A stretch of 64,000 nucleotides of DNA from Eledone cirrhosa (lineage: Eukaryota), in the NCBI GenBank assembly GCA_964016885.1, contig OZ024760.1, positions 29,388,001-29,452,000 of the forward strand. Direction: 5' to 3'. Position 1 is the stretch's first letter; the number at the start of each line of letters is the position of its first letter. The notes under the pieces are model-generated. The model saw nothing but the letters and a program-made list of their open reading frames with translations, had not been told where the DNA came from and made no database searches. Shown here one piece after another: positions 9,246 through 53,852 of this stretch. The position numbers were made by a program, and so were the translations under genes.

Positions 9246-9306
9246 TTTCATTTACCACTGGTTTCTTAAAAGCAAACAAATTTTGCTTTCAATCATCAGA
9301 ATGAAA
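9246..9306 (-). ncRNA. Type I hammerhead ribozyme motif, intact (left arm of fold-back)
   Basis: Minus strand TTTCATT-CTGATGA-TTGAAAGCAAA atttg TTTGCTTTTAA-GAAA-CCAGTGG-TA^-AATGAAA. Confidence 0.8.
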
Positions 9307-21069: not shown

Positions 21070-21265
21070 TACAGGTGTAGTAAAGAACCAGATAGCCCAT
21101 AACGCACCAGAGTACTCAATACTTGGGGAAGTAGAGTGGGTAATAGGAAAAAGTTTAAACCCAACGGCAGAACTCAAGCCGTTTCGACGGCTATTTCTGG
21201 ACTGAATTTAGTCCAGAAATAGCCGTCGAAACGGCTTGAACTCTGCCGTTGGGGTTAAACTTTTT

Positions 21266-21270
<5 letters not shown>
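21070..21270 (-). mobile_element. Fold-back element in (TA)n, family A (other copies ~24405-24560 and ~62860-63065)
   Basis: Perfect-looking hairpin centred near 21205 (AAGCCGTTTCGACGGCTATTTCTGGACT / AGTCCAGAAATAGCCGTCGAAACGGCTT). Shared tail GAGTACTCAATACTT..GTAGAGTGGGTAATAGGAA. Confidence 0.8.
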
Positions 21271-21304
<34 letters not shown>

Positions 21305-21320
21305 TAAAATAACAGATTAA

Positions 21321-21433
21321 AGTTTAAGCAAAGAATCGGTGCTTTCACCCTTAACGGGATCTTCTGAAACTCAGAAACTCAGAGTTTCAGAAGATCCCGT
21401 TAAGGGTGAAAGCAGCGATTCTTTGCTTAAACT
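21321..21433. ncRNA. Inverted pair of hammerhead-like motifs with variant core CAGAAGA (21321-21371 minus, 21383-21433 plus)
   Basis: AGTTT-CAGAAGA-TCCCgttaaGGGT-GAAA-GCA..TGC-TT-AAACT in both arms. Confidence 0.55.
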
Positions 21434-21523
21434 TTAATCTGTTATTTTAATAAATATTTGCTCTACGGTTCTTATATATTTGATATATATTTATCCTTAT
21501 CGAGCCCTCTTTGGATTTTAGTC

Positions 21524-23286
21524 ATCATCATCATCATCATCATCACCGTTTTACGTCCGTTCTTCCACGCTAGCATGGGTTAGACGGGTTGTCCTGTTGT
21601 GGGCAGTGTCTGGTCGGCTGACCATGCCTTGCTCATACAGGAACTGATCTGGCTTGATTTCTACAGCTGGATGCCCTTCCTAACACCAACCTCATTTACA
21701 GTGAGTGCTGGGTGCTTTTTCGTGGCGCCTACACGTCCACTTTACAGTGTGGGCTGGGTGCTTTTTTGCCGTGGCACCTCCACGACCACCTTGCGGTGGG
21801 GGGGGGGGGGCATATTGTTTATATGCTTCAGCATGTACCCATGGGAGGTCGGGTACCCTGTATTACTGCGTGACGCCAGAAGTCACGGTCGTGTGTCATT
21901 GACTTTGAGAGGTGTAGTTGGGTAAGGTCGGCTTTTATCACCTCATCCCAAGTCATCTTGGGTCTCCCCACTCCGCGGTTTCCATCAACTTCTAGTGCTC
22001 TGCACCTTTTTATGCAGCTGTCATCCTTCATACGCATCACATGTCCATACCAGCGTAACCGCCTCTCCTGCACGCAGCATTTGATTCCTCTTATGCTCAG
22101 TCTCTCTCTCAATTCATTTATGCTTTGTCGTTCACGTATATTACTGTTACACATCCATCGGAGCATGCAGGCTTCGTTTCTCTCTAATCTACGTAAGTCT
22201 TCCACCTTCAGCGCCCAGGTCTCACTACCATGCAACATCGCTGTTCGGATACACGCATCATACAGTCTGCCTTTCATTCTGAGGGAGAAGCCTTTTGCAG
22301 CTAGCAGTGGTAGTAGTTCCCTAAACTTCTTCCATCCCGTTCTTACCCTAGTTATTGTACTTTCTGAGCACCCACCTCCGTTGCTAATTCGGTCACCTAG
22401 GTAGCAGAAGCTGTCTACTGTTTCTACAGGGCCCTCCCAGAGATTGGTGGTACTTGTTTCCTGTGGCTGTTTGCTTGCTGTTTCAGCACAGCTGCTGCAT
22501 GTGAATCCTACATTCTTAATTAAGCTTCCTGAGATCCCGCTACATCTCTTGTGTACCCATTGTTTGCATTTGGGGCAAAGAATGGAGTTCCTACCTACAC
22601 CTTTCCTACATACTGAGCAAGGCCATTTCCCTGAGGGGATCTGGGTTCTGTTTTCTCGTCTACTTATAAGGACCTTAGTCTTTGTCATGTTGACTTTGAG
22701 GCCCTTTCTCTCTAGTCCCTGCTTCCAGGTTTGGAATTTATTCTCTAGTTCTACCATAGATTCAGCTATGAGTGCGAGGTCATCAGCATACAGGAGTTCC
22801 CATGGGCATCCGGTCTTAAACTCCTCCGTTATTGCCTGCAGGACTATGATGAACAGGAGAGGGCTAAGAACAGAGCCCTGGTGGACCCCAACCTGTACGC
22901 TAAATTCCTCGCTATACTCATTGCCAATCCTAACTTTGCTGACTGCTCCCCTATACATGGCTTGTACCGCTTTCACAAGCCATTCATCTACTCCTAGTTT
23001 TCTAAGAGCCCACCAGATTACTGCACGTGGAACTCTGTCAAAGGCTTTCTCAAGGTCGACAAATGCCAAGTAGAGTGGCTTACTTTTAGCTAGGTACTTT
23101 TCCTGTAATTGCCTCACAAGGAAGAGCGCATCAGTGGTGCCTTTCCCTGGAACAAACCCAAATTGCATCTCGTCTATATTCACCCGGTCCCTAATCAGCT
23201 GTGCTATAACTCTTTCTGTTACTTTCATGACCTGGTCCATCAACTTTATACCTCTATAGTTTCCTCTATCTATAGTTTCCTCTCTA
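21524..23286 (-). mobile_element. 5'-truncated RTE-clade LINE; intact 471-aa RT ORF (21828-23243); 7-bp TSD TTTAGTC
   Basis: QFGF, AFVDLEKAFDRV, GVHQGSVLSP, LLYADD, FCYLG, RLRWYGHV and GRPKMTW motifs. (GAT)n tail; TSD at 21517-21523 and 23287-23293. Confidence 0.95.
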
Positions 23287-23310
23287 TTTAGTCTTCAAAT
23301 TTATTATTAT

Positions 23311-23375
<65 letters not shown>

Positions 23376-23448
23376 GATAAGCAGAACAAGTAAAATTCAA
23401 TCAATTTTTTAAAATACATTAAAAAATATAATATAAATATTTACCTCT

Positions 23449-23553
23449 CCTAGTGGCCCTTACTGATCAGTTTCGCTTTGTAAAACCTCATAAATCCGAT
23501 GGATTTATGATGGAAAACCAAAGCTCATCAGAGAAGCATTTTCCCTTCCTAGG
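23449..23553 (-). ncRNA. Type I hammerhead ribozyme motif, intact core, 50-nt stem II
   Basis: Minus strand CCTAG..GCTTCT-CTGATGA-GCTTTG[TCATAAATCC atc GGATTTATGA]CAAAGC-GAAA-CTGATCAG-TA^-AGGGC.CTAGG. Confidence 0.8.
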
Positions 23554-23914
23554 GCTAAACGTCCCAGGAACGACAAAATATATAACCTCCTGCCAGCAAA
23601 TAAAGGTCTGAAAGGTCGTAAAAGTGACCCGTATGTAAACTGGACCGAAGTAAAAGCGGGAAAATCAAAGACTTGCTGTCTACAATTACTACTAAAAAAA
23701 TAGCAGCTAAATAGAACAGCAGAATTGTTCTCAACAGACGGAGAAAGAGATTGAAGTTAATATGTCCAGAAATACATAGGTTGTCTATGATTCAAGGTTG
23801 TTCAATGGTATTAATTTGATACACCAGAACTTTAATATTAAGATAAGCAGAACAAGTAAAATTCAATCAATTTTTTAAAATACATTAAAAAATATAATAT
23901 AAATATTTACCTCT

Positions 23915-24019
23915 CCTAGTGGCCCTTACTGATCAGTTTCGCTTTGTAAAACCTCATAAATCCGATGGATTTATGATGGAAAACCAAAGCTCATCAGAGA
24001 AGCATTTTCCCTTCCTAGG
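23915..24019 (-). ncRNA. Second copy of the same hammerhead, 466 bp away
   Basis: Same sequence as 23449-23553. Confidence 0.8.
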
Positions 24020-24094
24020 GATAAACGTCCCAGGAACGACAAAATATATAACCTCCTACCAGCAAATAAAGGTCTGAAAGGTCGTAAAAGGTCA

Positions 24095-24125
<31 letters not shown>

Positions 24126-24226
24126 TGTTTTGTGTAATTTTTTCCATAGAAAAGGTAAAGGAAAGAAGAGTGCTCTATATATAGTACAGAGCTATTTAAT
24201 TATGTAATAAACAACACAAAATAATT

Positions 24227-24298
24227 ATTCCATTACCAAAGGTTTCAGGAAACTAGATGATCTCAACAGAAATTTCCAGTACACTCATCAGATGAAAT
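24227..24298 (-). ncRNA. Type I hammerhead motif in a fold-back element related to the 9.2-kb element
   Basis: ATTTCAT-CTGATGA-stem II (ACTGG/CTAGT)-GAAA-CCTTTGG-TA^-ATGGAAT. Downstream AGCTCTGT..ATAGAGCACTCTT is shared with 9466-9495. Confidence 0.7.
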
Positions 24299-24650
24299 AT
24301 TTACGTTCATAAATAAGATCGTCTAGTCTCCTGAAACCTTTGGTAATGGAATAATTATATTGAGTTGTTTATTATGTAATCAAATATATATATATATGTA
24401 TATATACTGGTTAGACCATTATTCACAAGAGTACTCAATACTTGAGGTGGAGTATGGTTATATGAATGAGTCAGGACCCCGATGGCTGAGCTCTTGCTGT
24501 TTCAATAGCTAGTAGCTTTTGAAACAGCAAGAACTCAGTTATCGGGGTCTGACTCATTTATATATATATATATCCGGGAGCTTCCAACAGTAATGGTCGC
24601 ATTCTTTAAGGGTGTGTCAATATTTATTTATAAAACTGATCTATATTATA

Positions 24651-44651: not shown

Positions 44652-47600
44652 CAAATGTTGGTTTTAACACGACATAGATTCTCATGTGACTGTGGCCATG
44701 CTGTAGCACCAAATGTTGGTTTTAACACGACATAGATTCTCATGTGACTGTGGCCATGCTGTAGCACCAAATGTTGGTTTTAACACGACATAGATTCTCA
44801 TGTGACTGTGGCCATGCTGTAGCACCAAATGTTGGTTTTAACACGACGTAGATTCTCATGTAACTGTGGCCATGCTGTAGCACCAAATGTTGGTTTTAAC
44901 ACGACATAGATTCTCATGTGACTGTGGCCATGCTGCAGCACCAAATGTTGGTTTTAACACGACATAGATTCTCATGTAACTGTGGCCATGCTGTAGCACC
45001 AAATGTTGGTTTTAACACGACATAGATTCTCATGTGACTGAGGCCATGCTGCAGCACCAAATGTTGGTTTTAACACGACATAGATTCTCATGTAACTGTG
45101 GCCATGCTGCAGCACCAAATGTTGGTTTTAACACGACATAGATTCTCATGTAACTGTGGCCATGCTGCAGCACCAAATGTTGGTTTTAACACGACATAGA
45201 TTCTCATGTAACTGTGGCCATGCTGCAGCACCAAATGTTGGTTTTAACACGACATAGATTCTCATGTGACTGTGGCCATGCTGTAGCACCAAATGTTGGT
45301 TTTAACACGACGTAGATTCTCATGTAACTGTGGCCATGCTGTAGCACCAAATGTTGGTTTTAACACGACATAGATTCTCATGTGACTGTGGCCATGCTGT
45401 AGCACCAAATGTTGGTTTTAACACGACGTAGATTCTCATGTAACTGTGGCCATGCTGTAGCACCAAATGTTGGTTTTAACACGACATAATTTCTCATGTG
45501 ACTGTGGCCATGCTGCAGCACCAAATGTTGGTTTTAACACGACATAGATTCTCATGTAACTGTGGCCATGCTGCAGCACCAAATGTTGGTTTTAACACGA
45601 CATAGATTCTCATGTAACTGTGGCCATGCTGCAGCACCAAATGTTGGTTTTAACACGACATAGATTCTCATGTAACTGTGGCCATGCTGCAGCACCAAAT
45701 GTTGGTTTTAACACGACATAGATTCTCATGTAACTGTGGCCATGCTGCAGCACCAAATGTTGGTTTTAACACGACATAGATTCTCATGTAACTGTGGCCA
45801 TGCTGCAGCACCAAATGTTGGTTTTAACACGACATAGATTCTCATGTAACTGTGGCCATGCTGCAGCACCAAAACGTTGGTTTTTAACACGACGTAGATT
45901 CTCATGTAACTGTGGCCATGCTGCAGCACCAAAACGTTGGTTTTAACATGACATAGATTCTCACGTGACTGTGGCCATGCTGCAGCACCAAATGTTGGTT
46001 TTAACACGACATAGATTCTCATGTAACTGTGGCCATGCTGCAGCACCAAATGTTGGTTTTTAACACAACATAGATTCTCATGTGACTGTGGCCATGCTGC
46101 AGCACCAAATGTTGGTTTTTAACACAACATAGATTCTCATGTAACTGTGGCCATGCTGCAGCACCAAATGTTGGTTTTTAACACAACATAGATTCTCATG
46201 TGACTGTGGCCATGCTGCAGCACCAAATGTTGGTTTTAACACGACATAGATTCTCATGTAACTGTGGCCATGCTGCAGCACCAAATGTTGGTTTTTAACA
46301 CAACATAGATTCTCATGTGACTGTGGCCATGCTGCAGCACCAAATGTTGGTTTTAACACGACATAGATTCTCATGTAACTGTGGCCATGCTGCAGCACCA
46401 AATGTTGGTTTTAACACGACATAGATTCTCATGTGACTGTGGCCATGCTGCAGCACCAAATGTTGGTTTTAACACCACATAGATTCTCATGTAACTGTGG
46501 CCATGCTGCAGCACCAAATGTTGGTTTTAACACGACATAGATTCTCATGTGACTGTGGCCATGCTGCAGCACCAAATGTTGGTTTTAACACGACATAGAT
46601 TCTCATGTGACTGTGGCCATGCTGCAGCACCAAATGTTGGTTTTAACACGACATAGATTCTCATGTGACTGTGGCCATGCTGCAGCACCAAATGTTGGTT
46701 TTAACACGACATAGATTCTCATGTGACTGTGGCCATGCTGCAGCACCAAATGTTGGTTTTAACACGACATAGATTCTCATGTGACTGTGGCCATGCTGCA
46801 GCACCAAATGTTGGTTTTAACACGACATAGATTCTCATGTAACTGTGGCCATGCTGTTGCACCAAATGTTGGTTTTAACACGACATACATTCTCATGTAA
46901 CTGTGGCCATGCTGCAGCACCAAATGTTGGTTTTAACACGACATAGATTCTCATGTAACTGTGGCCATGCTGCAGCACCAAATGTTGGTTTTAACACGAC
47001 ATAGATTCTCATGTAACTGTGGCCATGCTGCAGCACCAAATGTTGGTTTTAACACGACATAGATTCTCATGTAACTGTGGCCATGCTGCAGCACCAAATG
47101 TTGGTTTTAACACGACATAGATTCTCATGTAACTGTGGCCATGCTGCAGCACCAAATGTTGGTTTTAACACGACATAGATTCTCATGTGACTGTGGCCAT
47201 GCTGCAGCACCAAATGTTGGTTTTAACACGACATAGATTCTCATGTAACTGTGGCCATGCTGCAGCACCAAATGTTGGTTTTAACACGACGTAGATTCTC
47301 ATGTAACTGTGGCCATGCTGTAGCACCAAATGTTGGTTTTAACACGACATAGATTCTCATGTAACTGTGGCCATGCTGCAGCACCAAATGTTGGTTTTAA
47401 CACGACATAGATTCTCATGTGACTGTGGCCATGCTGCAGCACCAAATGTTGGTTTTAACACGACATAGATTCTCATGTAACTGTGGCCATGCTGCAGCAC
47501 CAAATGTTGGTTTTAACACGACATAGATTCTCATGTAACTGTGGCCATGCTGCAGCACCAAATGTTGGTTTTAACACGACATAGATTCTCATGTAACTGT

Positions 47601-50600
47601 GGCCATGCTGCAGCACCAAATGTTGGTTTTAACACGACATAGATTCTCATGTAACTGTGGCCATGCTGCAGCACCAAATGTTGGTTTTAACACGACATAG
47701 ATTCTCATGTAACTGTGGCCATGCTGCAGCACCAAATGTTGGTTTTAACACGACATAGATTCTCATGTAACTGTGGCCATGCTGCAGCACCAAATGTTGG
47801 TTTTAACACGACGTAGATTCTCATGTAACTGTGGCCATGCTGTAGCACCAAATGTTGGTTTTAACACGACATAGATTCTCATGTAACTGTGGCCATGCTG
47901 CAGCACCAAATGTTGGTTTTAACACGACATAGATTCTCATGTAACTGTGGCCATGCTGCAGCACCAAATGTTGGTTTTAACACGACATAGATTCTCATGT
48001 AACTGTGGCCATGCTGCAGCACCAAATGTTGGTTTTAACACAACATAGATTCTCATGTGACTGTGGCCATGCTGCAGCACCAAATGTTGGTTTTAACACA
48101 ACATAGATTCTCATGTAACTGTGGCCATGCTGCAGCACCAAATGTTGGTTTTAACACAAAATAGATTCTCATGTAACTGTGGCCATGCTACAGCACCAAA
48201 TGTTGGTTTTAACACGACATACATTCTCATGTAACTGTGGCCATGCTGCAGCACCAAAACGTTGGTTTTAACACGACATACATTCTCATGTAACTGTGGC
48301 CATGCTGCAGCACCAAAACGTTGGTTTTATCACGACATACATTCTCATGTAACTGTGGCCATGCTGCAGCACCAAATGTTGGTTTTAACATGACATAGAT
48401 TCTCATGTAACTGTGGCCATGCTGCAGCACCAAATGTTGGTTTTAACATGACATAGATTCTCATGTAACTGTGGTCATGCTGCAGCACCAAAACGTTGGT
48501 TTTAACACGACATACATTCTCATGTAACTGTGGCCATGCTGCAGCACCAAAACGTTGGTTTTAACACGACATACATTCTCATGTAACTGTGGCCATGCTG
48601 CAGCACCAAAACGTTGGTTTTAACACGACATACATTCTCATGTAACTGTGGCCATGCTGCAGCACCAAATGTTGGTTTTAACATGACATAGATTCTCATG
48701 TAACTGTGGCCATGCTGCAGCACCAAATGTTGGTTTTAACACGACATAGATTCTCATGTAACTGTGGCCATGCTGTAGCACCAAATGTTGGTTTTAACAC
48801 GACATAGATTCTCATGTAACTGTGGCCATGCTGTAGCACCAAATGTTGGTTTTAACACGACATAGATTCTCATGTAACTGTGGCCATGCTGCAGCACCAA
48901 ATGTTGGTTTTAACATGACATAGATTCTCATGTAACTGTGGCCATGCTGTAGCACCAAATGTTGGTTTTAACACGACATAGATTCTCATGTAACTGTGGC
49001 CATGCTGCAGCACCAAATGTTGGTTTTAACACGACATAGATTCTCATGTAACTGTGGCCATGCTGTAGCACCAAATGTTGGTTTTAACACGACATAGATT
49101 CTCATGTAACTGTGGCCATGCTGCAGCACCAAATGTTGGTTTTAACACGACATAGATTCTCATGTAACTGTGGCCATGCTGTAGCACCAAATCTTGGTTT
49201 TAACACGATGTAGATTCTCATGTAACTGTGGCCATGCTGTAGCACCAAATCTTGGTTTTAACACGACGTAGATTCTCATGTAACTGTGGCCATGCTGTAG
49301 CACCAAATGTTGGTTTTAACACGACATAGATTCTCATGTGACCGTGGCCATGCTGCAGCACCAAATGTTGGTTTTAACACGACATAGATTCTCATGTAAC
49401 TGTGGCCATTCTGTAGCACCAAATGTTGGTTTTAACACGACATAGATTCTCATGTGACTGTGGCCATGCTGCAGCACCAAATGTTGGTTTTAACACAACA
49501 TAGATTCTCATGTAACTGTGGCCATGCTGTAGCACCAAATGTTAGTTTTAACACGACATAGATTCTCATGTAACTGTGGCCATACTGCAGCACCAAATGT
49601 TGGTTTTAACACGACATAGATTCTCATGTAACTGTGGCCATGCTGCAGCACCAAATGTTGGTTTTAACACGACATAGATTCTCATGTAACTGTGGCCATT
49701 CTGCAGCACCAAATGTTGGTTTTAACACGACATAGATTCTCATGTAACTGTGGCCATGCTGTAGCACCAAATGTTGGTTTTAACACGACATAGATTCTCA
49801 TGTAACTGTGGCCATGCTGCAGCACCAAATGTTGGTTTTAACACGACATAGATTCTCATGTAACTGTGGCCATGCTGCAGCACCAAATGTTGGTTTTAAC
49901 ACGACATAGATTCTCATGTAACTGTGGCCATTCTGCAGCACCAAATGTTGGTTTTAACACAACATAGATTCTCATGTAACTGTGGCCATGCTGTAGCACC
50001 AAATGTTGGTTTTAACACGACATAGATTCTCATGTAACTGTGGCCATGCTGCAGCACCAAATGTTGGTTTTAACACAACATAGATTCTCATGTAACTGTG
50101 GCCATGCTGCAGCACCAAATGTTGGTTTTAACACGACATAGATTCTCATGTAACTGTGGCCATTCTGCAGCACCAAATGTTGGTTTTAACACGACATAGA
50201 TTCTCATGTAACTGTGGCCATGCTGTAGCACCAAATGTTGGTTTTAACACGACATAGATTCTCATGTAACTGTGGCCATTCTGCAGCACCAAATGTTGGT
50301 TTTAACACGACATAGATTCTCATGTAACTGTGGCCATGCTGCAGCACCAAATGTTGGTTTTAACACAACGTAGATTCTCATGTAACTGTGGCCATGCTGC
50401 AGCATCAAATGTTGGTTTTAACACGACATAGATTCTCATGTGACCGTGGCCATGCTGCAGCACCAAATGTTGGTTTTAACACGGCATAGATTCTCATGTA
50501 ACTGTGGCCATTCTGCAGCACCAAATGTTGGTTTTAACACGACATAGATTCTCATGTAACTGTGGCCATGCTGCAGCACCAAATGTTGGTTTTAACACAA

Positions 50601-53600
50601 CGTAGATTCTCATGTAACTGTGGCCATGCTGCAGCACCAAATGTTGGTTTTAACACGACATAGATTCTCATGTGACCGTGACCATGCTGCAGCACCAAAA
50701 CGTTGGTTTTAACACGACGTAGATTCTCATGTAACTGTGGCCATGCTGTAGCACCAAATCTTGGTTTTAACACGACGTAGATTCTCATGTAACTGTGGCC
50801 ATGCTGTAGCACCAAATGTTGTTTTTAACACGACATAGATTCTCATGTGACTGTGGCCATGCTGCAGCACCAAATGTTGGTTTTAACACGACATAAATTC
50901 TCATGTAACTGTGGCCATGCTGTAGCACCAAATGTTGGTTTTAACACGACATAGATTCTCATGTAACTGTGGCCATGCTGCAGCACCAAATGTTGGTTTT
51001 AACATGATATAGATTCTCATGTAACTGTGGCCATGCTGTAGCACCAAATCTTGGTTTTAACACGACGTAGATTCTCATGTAACTGTGGCCATGCTGTAGC
51101 ACCAAATGTTGGTTTTAACACGACGTAGATTCTCATGTAACTGTGGCCATGCTGTAGCACCAAATCTTGGTTTTAACACGACGTAGATTCTCATGTAACT
51201 GTGGCCATGCTGTAGCACCAAATCTTGGTTTTAACACGATGTAGATTCTCATGTGACCGTGGCCATGCTGCAGCACCAAATGTTGGTTTTAACACGACAT
51301 AGATTCTCATGTAACTGTGGCCATGCTGCAGCACCAAATGTTGGTTTTAACACGACATAGATTCTCATGTAACTCTGGCCATGCTGCAGCACCAAATGTT
51401 GGTTTTAAACATGACATAGATTGTCATGTAATTGTGGCCATGCTGCAGCACCAAATGTTGGTTTTAACACGACATAGATTCTCATGTAACTGTGGCCATG
51501 CTGCAGCACCAAAACGTTGGTTTTAACACGACATAGATTCTCATGTAACTGTGGCCATGCTGCAGCACCAAATGTTGGTTTTAACACGACATAGATTCTC
51601 ATGTAACTGTGGCCATGCTGCAGCACCAAATGTTGGTTTTAACACGACATAGATTTTCATGTAACTGTGGCCATGCTGCAGCACCAAATGTTGGTTTTAA
51701 CACAACATAGATTCTCATGTGACTGTGGCCATGCTGCAGCACCAAATATTTGTTTTTAACATGACATAGATTCTCATGTAACTGTGGCCATGGTGCAGCA
51801 CCAAATGTTGGTTTTAACACGATGTAGATTCTCATGTGACTGTGGCCATGCTGCAGCACCAAATGTTGGTTTTAACACGATGTAGATTCTCATGTAACTG
51901 TGGCCATGCTGCAGCACCAAATATTGGTTTTAACACGACGTAGATTCTCATGTAACTGTGGCCATCCTGCAGCACCAAAACGTTGGTTTTAACACGACAT
52001 ACATTCTCATGTAACTGTGGCCATGCTGCAGCACCAAATGTTGGTTTTTAACACGACGTAGATTCTCATGTAACTGTGGCCATGCTGCAGCACCAAAACG
52101 TTGGTTTTAACACAACATAGATTCTCATGTAACTGTGGCCATGCTGTAGCACCAAATGTTGGTTTTAACACGACATAGATTCTCATGTAACTGTGGCCAT
52201 GCTGCAGCACCAAATGTTGGTTTTAACACGATGTAGATTCTCATGTAACTGTGGCCATGCTGCAGCACCAAATGTTGGTTTTAACACGACATAGATTCTC
52301 ATGTAACTGTGGCCATGCTGCAGCACCAAATATTTGTTTTTAACATGACATAGATTCTCATGTAACTGTGGCCATGGTGCAGCACCAAATGTTGGTTTTA
52401 ACACGATGTAGATTCTCATGTGACTGTGGCCATGCTGCAGCACCAAATGTTGGTTTTAACACGATGTAGATTCTCATGTAACTGTGGCCATGCTGCAGCA
52501 CCAAATATTGGTTTTAACACGACGTAGATTCTCATGTAACTGTGGCCATCCTGCAGCACCAAAACGTTGGTTTTAACACGACATACATTCTCATGTAACT
52601 GTGGCCATGCTGCAGCACCAAATGTTGGTTTTTAACACGACGTAGATTCTCATGTAACTGTGGCCATGCTGCAGCACCAAAACGTTGGTTTTAACACAAC
52701 GTAGATTCTCATGTAACTGTGGCCATGCTGTAGCACCAAATGTTGGTTTTAACACGACATAGATTCTCATGTAACTGTGGCCATTCTGCAGCACCAAATG
52801 TTGGTTTTAACACGACATAGATTCTCATGTAACTGTGGCCATGCTGCAGCACCAAATGTTGGTTTTAACACAACGTAGATTCTCATGTAACTGTGGCCAT
52901 GCTGCAGCACCAAATGTTGGTTTTAACACGACATAGATTCTCATGTAACTGTGGCCATGCTGCAGCACCAAATGTTGGTTTTAAACATGACATAGATTGT
53001 CATGTAATTGTGGCCATGCCGCAGCACCAAATGTTGGTTTTAACACGACATAGATTCTCATGTAACTGTGGCCATGCTGTAGCACCAAATGTTGGTTTTA
53101 ACACGACATAGATTCTCATGTGACCGTGGCCATGCTGCAGCACCAAAACGTTGGTTTTAACACGACATAGATTCTCATGTAACTGTGGCCATGCTGCAGC
53201 ACCAAATGTTGGTTTTAACACGACATAGATTCTCATGTAACTGTGGCCATGCTGCAGCACCAAATGTTGGTTTTAACACGACATAGATTTTCATGTAACT
53301 ATGGCCATGCTGCAGCACCAAATGTTGGTTTTAACACGACATAGATTTTCATGTAACTGTGGCCATGCTGCAGCACCAAATGTTGGTTTTAACACGACAT
53401 AGATTCTCATGTAACTGTGGCCATTCTGCAGCACCAAATGTTGGTTTTAACACGACATAGATTCTCATGTAACTCTGGTCATGCTGCAGCACCAAATATT
53501 TGTTTTCAACATGACATAGATTCTCATGTAACTGTGGCCATGCTGCAGCACCAAATGTTGGTTTTAACACGATGTAGATTCTCATGTAACTGTGACCATG

Positions 53601-53852
53601 CTGCAGCACCAAATGTTGGTTTTAACACGATGTAGATTCTCATGTAACTGTGGCCATGCTGCAGCACCAAATGTTGGTTTTAACACAACATAGATTCTCA
53701 TGTAACTGTGGCCATGCTGCAGCACCAAACGTTGGTTTTAACACGACATAGATTCTCATGTAACTGTGGTCATGCTGCAGCACCAAACGTTGGTTTTAAC
53801 ATGACAGATTACTGTTTTAAGAATCTCGCGTGACTGTGGCCATGCTGGAGCA
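44652..53852. repeat. 9.2-kb, 58-bp satellite array (~158 copies)
   Basis: Unit CAAATGTTGGTTTTAACACGACATAGATTCTCATGTAACTGTGGCCATGCTGCAGCAC. Confidence 0.97.

Follow-up and report, generated by a model that had tools for sequence, protein, structure and literature searches.

The window, by which we mean the whole stretch of 64,000 nucleotides of Eledone cirrhosa DNA analysed here (GCA_964016885.1, contig OZ024760.1, positions 29,388,001 to 29,452,000 of the forward strand), contains at positions 23371-24090 what we believe, with reasonable confidence, to be a young insertion of one and a half units of a protein-free non-LTR retrozyme, a repeat that the reverse transcriptase and endonuclease of a Penelope-type element likely insert into TA microsatellites, probably with a circular RNA as template. 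The retrozyme class is already known, and the E. cirrhosa family adds to it a member that behaves like a non-autonomous Penelope element.

The insertion lies on the minus strand as a 1.5-mer of a non-coding hammerhead repeat whose unit measures 485 bp, and it is truncated at its 5′ end at unit position 254. It consists of a complete unit of 466 bp (23371-23836), which corresponds to the 485 bp of the family minus a private 19-bp deletion, and of a partial second unit (23837-24090, unit positions 1-254) that holds a complete second hammerhead. The original prediction of two 254-bp direct repeats lying 466 bp apart and differing at about two positions is borne out by the exact coordinates, since the repeats at 23371-23624 and 23837-24090 measure 254 bp each (256 if two shared TA bases are included), with a spacing of 466 and differences at 23555/24021 and 23592/24058. 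It had also placed an intact minus-strand hammerhead with a palindromic stem III in each repeat and the whole element within (TA)n, and both points hold. The left flank is a (TA)29 microsatellite (23314-23372), situated at the 3′ terminus of the element's RNA strand, and the right flank is (AT)14 (24095-24122), with four additional bases (GTCA, 24091-24094) at the 5′ junction that are the reverse complement of the next four bases of the unit. No open reading frame for a reverse transcriptase and GIY-YIG domain is present in the unit, and the longest ATG frame on its circularised form encodes 34 amino acids.

The 3′ end of the insertion (23371-23372, minus strand) is a fixed end that we call site 1, a putative start of reverse transcription that is common to 53 of the 75 insertion arms examined. 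Between it and the hammerhead cut site there is an AU-rich hairpin (23373-23455), in a segment common to sister families. From the same site, at the unit junction 23836/23837, a region that we call the tail extends to a second site, site 2, near unit position 380 (at 23750), so that the tail occupies 23750-23836 and measures 87 nt in this copy and ~106 nt in the family. It includes a first hairpin (23800-23830) that is nearly invariant across sister families and whose motif has 1777 occurrences genome-wide, as well as the remnant of a second one (23760-23785; GUAC-NNN-GURY in the family), in which the private deletion falls.

Within the 3.0-Gb assembly, a 26-nt hammerhead motif across the cut site has 586 exact matches and its reversed control has none, so the paralogues whose survey had been suggested do exist genome-wide. 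The first 100 matches listed correspond to 59 sites, from which we extrapolate a family of roughly 350 sites. Copies on many chromosomes match the window unit at 92-96% as 485-bp units, and they occur as dispersed monomers, dimers and multimers of up to 20 units. Outside the subfamily markers, divergence is only ~0.5%, in support of the youth originally attributed to the element. The predicted 466-nt unit, on the other hand, stood as the spacing at this locus but not as the unit of the family: the family monomer is 485 nt, and the shorter spacing arises because 19 bp of the family sequence (positions 396-414) are missing from the window copy, deleted near 23766-23769, together with most of the conserved second tail hairpin. 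The deletion junction occurs a single time in the genome, in the window copy itself; the 466-nt form has not spread, and no daughter of it is left in the assembly. Contigs from four unlabelled runs cover the unit, and none of the listed pieces bridges the private deletion. Their summed depth was higher over the first 90 bases of the unit, which served as a lead to the sister families.

These sister families have units of ~459, 470-480 and 525 bp that are ~70-90% alike, and the 3′-end motif that they share with the window family has 1316 matches in the genome. For instance, retrozymes at loci L139 (6010-6919), L123, L164 and L173, with units of ~459, 525, 471-481 and 468 bp, have the tail hairpins in common and show the two-end pattern, and paired ends at sites 1 and 2 were also seen in several sister-family loci. 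Among 16 of the 17 tails listed, the first hairpin is nearly invariant and hence hardly informative on covariation, and two-sided changes are seen at four pairs of the second. Two candidates that emerged around these families were rejected: a spacing of 2781 bp between end motifs, taken for a full Penelope element, turned out to be two short copies in TA-rich DNA, and a repeat downstream of a Penelope open reading frame at L139, taken for a terminal repeat, is the sister retrozyme of that locus in the adjoining (TA)n.

Both hammerheads of the window copy are of type I and lie on the minus strand. Hammerhead 1 spans 23456-23537, with CUGAUGA at 23531-23525, stem II at 23524-23475 and the palindromic stem III at 23471-23462, and its predicted cut falls between 23461 and 23460; hammerhead 2 is identical to it and spans 23922-24003, with a predicted cut between 23927 and 23926. 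Each comprises CUGAUGA, a 50-nt stem II with a G-C pair at its base, GAAA, stem III (ACUGAUCAGU), the GUA triplet and a short stem I. Rfam returned no hammerhead family match for them, whether the gathering threshold was applied or E values up to 10 were allowed, probably because of the long stem II. Cleavage at both predicted sites would yield a monomer of 466 nt (23461-23926, minus strand). Thus, having two complete hammerheads, the window copy could release a monomer, although according to the model its product would be defective in the tail.

The fold of this motif can be followed across sister families, from which we aligned 17 of the 32 distinct variants collected. The collecting pattern required the catalytic core and the outer bases of stem III, which is why the core is invariant in the alignment, but it did not require complementarity. 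In the 17 rows, 90.6% of the cells pair, against 34-44% when the partners are slid, a figure that is favoured by the fact that the structure scored was drawn from the same sequences. Two-sided changes are found at 12 of the 27 pairs, and the basal pair of stem II is standard in just 8 of the 17 rows. Such compensatory changes, by which the fold is preserved in sister families, support the idea that it is under selection. Stem III is self-complementary in all 17 rows, by way of UGAUCA, UGUACA or CGAUCG, with an odd-length form in four of them. Since the palindrome is kept while its innermost pairs are impossible within one strand, the selection would be for an intermolecular helix, which points to a hammerhead that would act as a dimer. 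The dimer type assigned to it in the original prediction thus gains support from the compensatory changes that preserve the palindrome.

Folding predictions give a stem III duplex of -13.6 kcal/mol compared with +2.7 kcal/mol for a stem III hairpin. Other predictions speak against the model: the active monomeric fold of the window hammerhead comes out 7.5 kcal/mol less stable than a misfold that pairs the core with stem III, and in the full transcript the pair probabilities of stems I and III do not exceed 0.02, with a value of only 0.15 for pairing of the palindrome between the two hammerheads. The circular monomer folds with a z-score of -5.9 (466 nt) or -6.9 (485 nt) relative to 25 shuffled versions, at a GC content of 34-36%. 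Metazoan hammerheads have been described as dimeric (PMC4209133), and, according to a preprint (bioRxiv 10.64898/2026.07.22.740005), eight of nine predicted Xenopus dimers failed to cleave in vitro and one cleaved.

The ends of the insertions provide a second line of evidence. We surveyed all 59 sites behind the first 100 listed motif matches, which were not chosen by their ends but, as they must span the cut site, include no very short insertions. In hammerhead sense, the 3′ ends of the 75 arms at these sites fall at site 1 (unit position 1) in 53 cases, at site 2 (around position 380) in 18 and elsewhere in four. The two sites are ~106 nt apart, ~90 and ~196 nt downstream of the cut rather than at it, and both are located in predicted single-stranded linkers beside the two tail hairpins; (TA)n abuts 62 of the 71 fixed ends. 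Sixteen insertions are head-to-head, and 12 of these have one arm ending at each site, one has both arms at site 1 and three are irregular. It had been suggested that paralogues be surveyed for circularly permuted start points, and what we observe is a different pattern, neither random nor centred on the GUA: the 3′ ends sit at two fixed points, and the 5′ ends are scattered.

Arms cross the cut site with no scar and no pile-up of ends, and 5′ ends lie within 5 nt of the cut in 2 of 71 cases, against 1.8 expected. The template was therefore not a cleaved linear monomer read once. Run-off at the cut was also considered as genomic evidence of cleavage and was discarded, given that the three insertions with a cut-site 5′ end joined to (TA)n were accompanied by three and zero at two control positions.

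Two fixed ends, one per inverted arm, match the "tail" signature left by internal priming on both strands in Penelope elements. Frangieh et al. (PMC11167929) showed that AT-rich DNA is cut on both strands by the protein of Poseidon, a Penelope element from Anolis, which then extends each of them; reverse transcription begins at two positions inside the RNA, downstream of the hammerhead, and the interval between these is the genomic tail. In the account of Craig et al. (PMC8557442), Penelope elements show partial tandems, inverted truncated copies, tails and a bias towards (TA)n. As the retrozyme displays partial tandems, a two-site tail, inverted arms and a (TA)n target, the relatedness to Penelope elements claimed in the original prediction is supported, and it is likely that a Penelope-type enzyme mobilises this family.

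Candidates for such an enzyme are present in the genome. There are 10,596 candidate GIY-YIG matches, of which 150 were scored; 18 loci were fetched for long frames, and of three that were scanned, two contain both the reverse transcriptase and the GIY-YIG domain and one the reverse transcriptase alone. The nearest named relative of one of the E. cirrhosa Penelope proteins comes from Octopus bimaculoides, with 75% identity, and from a cysteine linker and the descriptions in PMC8557442 the Penelope proteins of this genome may be labelled Neptune-type. Two E. cirrhosa Penelope families carry a hammerhead whose stem III is palindromic, and they have two fixed 3′ ends, inverted arms that end at different sites and (TA)n flanks; the retrozyme bears the same footprint as these presumed helpers. 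A search for terminal repeats homologous to the unit in 48 Penelope loci, drawn from the 150 scored of 10,596 candidates, found none by BLAST or profile (the best profile match had an E value of 2.3), and a search for a hammerhead with a short stem II and the same stem III, as a partner might carry, gave 0 matches. Penelope fragments occur near family copies at no fixed position. A young Penelope family was observed at loci L138, L139, L143, L146, L147 and L152, with frames of up to 938 amino acids and copies that are 91-98% alike, and its hammerhead has the core UUGAAAA, like the U3-A8 variant described in PMC4209133.

We can propose a cycle that would join these elements. A tandem copy would be transcribed on the hammerhead strand, after which two hammerheads would pair through the 10-nt palindrome of stem III and cut, and a host ligase would close the monomer. 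A Penelope-type protein would then recognise the hairpins of the ~106-nt tail, nick (TA)n, and prime at site 1 or 2 inside the RNA, using a single DNA end or both, and copying would continue past the cut site over a variable length, frequently exceeding one lap. On balance we lean towards the circular intermediate that this cycle implies. The more complete statement, that the insertion ends are an in vivo record of a Penelope-type enzyme copying a hammerhead-made circle from both nicked strands, at two internal sites set by the two conserved hairpins of the tail, is one that we make tentatively and rate slightly below even chances. If it is true, dimer-only cleavage and circularisation would make up for the sequence lost through internal priming; it would also be known by which enzyme and which cis-signal animal retrozymes are mobilised, and the hammerheads of Penelope elements would be given a function.

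The uniformity of units within sites is an observation in favour of a circle. Among 28 multi-unit sites, taken from 46 mostly best-scoring sites, units of the same site disagree at subfamily markers in 5 of 245 comparisons, against 94 ± 15 for units of other sites. When 86 sites are pooled, 10 of the 54 that hold several units have site-private substitutions occurring in every overlapping unit, 14 in total, of which two are shared across inverted arms (L048 and L207), and 93 private variants are confined to one unit. This uniformity agrees with a single monomer being traversed again and again, as would be expected from a circle, and together with the arms that cross the cut it upholds the earlier proposal that the element was copied from a circular or tandem RNA template. 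Nevertheless, uniform units could also have been inherited from uniform tandem donors.

A serious, if unlikely, alternative is that the family derives from Penelope elements as a non-autonomous form whose templates are linear tandem transcripts left uncleaved, in which the hammerhead is slow, assisted by protein or has some other role, and in which multi-unit copies come from template jumping and DNA duplication. Hammerhead cleavage is dispensable for Penelope insertion in vitro, where hammerhead mutants had no effect (PMC11167929), and non-autonomous head-to-tail Penelope derivatives are known in a clade described as mostly lacking hammerheads (PMC8557442); the predicted misfold of the hammerhead would also agree with a linear template. 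Arrays of 4-20 units (L227-L228, L032, L031 and L197) contain repeated blocks of private variants, which denote later growth at the DNA level, towards satellite DNA, and these higher-order blocks both favour the linear alternative and rule out long arrays as proof of rolling-circle copying. The lack of enrichment of 5′ ends at the cut site would be expected from a linear template, but fits a circle equally well. Against a linear template stands the fact that compensatory changes conserve stem II and the dimer palindrome among families that are ~70-90% alike, as well as the uniformity of units within sites, site-private variants included. Furthermore, internal priming on a linear transcript would always shorten the daughter (on that of the window copy, it would yield at most ~250-340 nt, less than one unit), yet 39 of the 75 arms exceed one unit and seven exceed two; a circle would explain why multi-unit copies continue to be made. 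Finally, circles, which are predicted here, have been shown for the retrozymes of coral, mussel and axolotl (PMC7229834).

It is quite improbable, in our opinion, that the family is instead SINE-like or a satellite, either mobilised by a LINE or spread solely by DNA duplication, and that its likeness to Penelope elements is incidental. A 488-amino-acid LINE-type reverse transcriptase frame does lie directly past the left (TA)n (21828-23294, minus strand, 5′-truncated), and long arrays do grow at the DNA level. However, this LINE has an (ATC)n tail (near 21525) and occupies a different repeat, apparently a palindromic, TA-flanked one that borders the (TA)n target at its end; the two internal fixed ends, one per inverted arm, the overlapping content of the arms and the (TA)n target are Penelope-like and not LINE-like, and the sites are dispersed over many chromosomes. 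As for an assembly error behind the duplication in the window, the position of the locus between microsatellites in very repetitive DNA would make one conceivable, but we consider it extremely improbable, given that the repeat copies differ at two positions, that the junction between them is the native junction of the family and that 16 of the 59 surveyed sites hold at least two complete same-strand hammerheads by a strict pattern.

With metazoan non-LTR retrozymes, as described in PMC7229834 and bioRxiv 10.64898/2026.07.22.740005, this family shares a protein-free tandem organisation with one type I hammerhead per unit and a weak palindromic helix III, a low GC content, a strongly self-paired monomer, dispersed monomers to multimers and co-occurrence with Penelope elements. 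Its unit of 485 nt is longer than the 170-400 nt given in PMC7229834 and falls within the 51-972 bp of the preprint. In contrast to those descriptions, stem II is here 50 nt long with an inner hairpin and (TA)n targeting is strict, while two fixed ends and twin-armed inversions are absent from the retrozyme descriptions consulted. The mobilising enzyme of retrozymes has been sought among LINEs or Penelope elements, both of which are named as candidates in PMC7229834, and the preprint favours Penelope on the grounds of co-occurrence and of homology between terminal repeats. To these arguments the present family adds mechanistic footprints, namely two fixed starts, twin arms and a conserved tail, and the window copy, being a natural deletion of a tail hairpin, makes for a simple in vitro test. 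In the literature that we searched, mostly the main texts of freely available papers, we found no report on cephalopod retrozymes or on a tail footprint in retrozymes.

The likeness to Penelope elements themselves (Poseidon, PMC11167929; Neptune and Naiad, PMC8557442) extends to partial tandems, 5′ truncation, inverted copies, a tail between two reverse transcription starts downstream of the hammerhead and an AT-rich or (TA)n target, with the differences that the retrozyme has no open reading frame, that its tail of ~106 nt compares with 30-40 nt in the elements as described and that terminal-repeat homology was lacking in the 48 loci. Penelope hammerheads predicted to be dimeric (PMC4209133) similarly have a short helix I, an enlarged helix II and a small palindromic helix III, but their helix II is reported to be of 6-8 bp compared with the 50 nt found here, where, moreover, the motif is in a unit devoid of open reading frames. 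The non-autonomous elements of Chlamys, such as MRC1 (PMC8557442), also form multi-copy head-to-tail insertions with a bias towards microsatellites, although, as described there, they generally resemble an autonomous family at their 3′ end and belong to the clade that mostly lacks hammerheads. Plant LTR retrozymes are characterised by a type III hammerhead within LTRs and 4-bp target duplications, whereas we find a type I hammerhead, tandem units and (TA)n flanks.

The window is rich in other hammerhead-like elements. An inverted pair of motifs with a long stem II and the stem III ACCAGTGGT lies at 9299 (minus) and 9378 (plus), in a palindromic TA-flanked repeat, and further motifs from other families are located at 24190-24390 (minus), 24657 (plus), 28766 (minus), 29334 (minus), 59539 (plus) and 60928 (minus). 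Several of these have a palindromic stem III, and two are within 600 bp of the insertion at 23371-24090. Near-perfect long hairpins with (TA)n flanks at 21143-21270, 21297-21457 and 24459-24564 may be inverted termini belonging to further elements of the Penelope type or non-autonomous ones. Tandem arrays are also numerous, one of them being a 58-bp minisatellite with 157 copies at 44652-53806.
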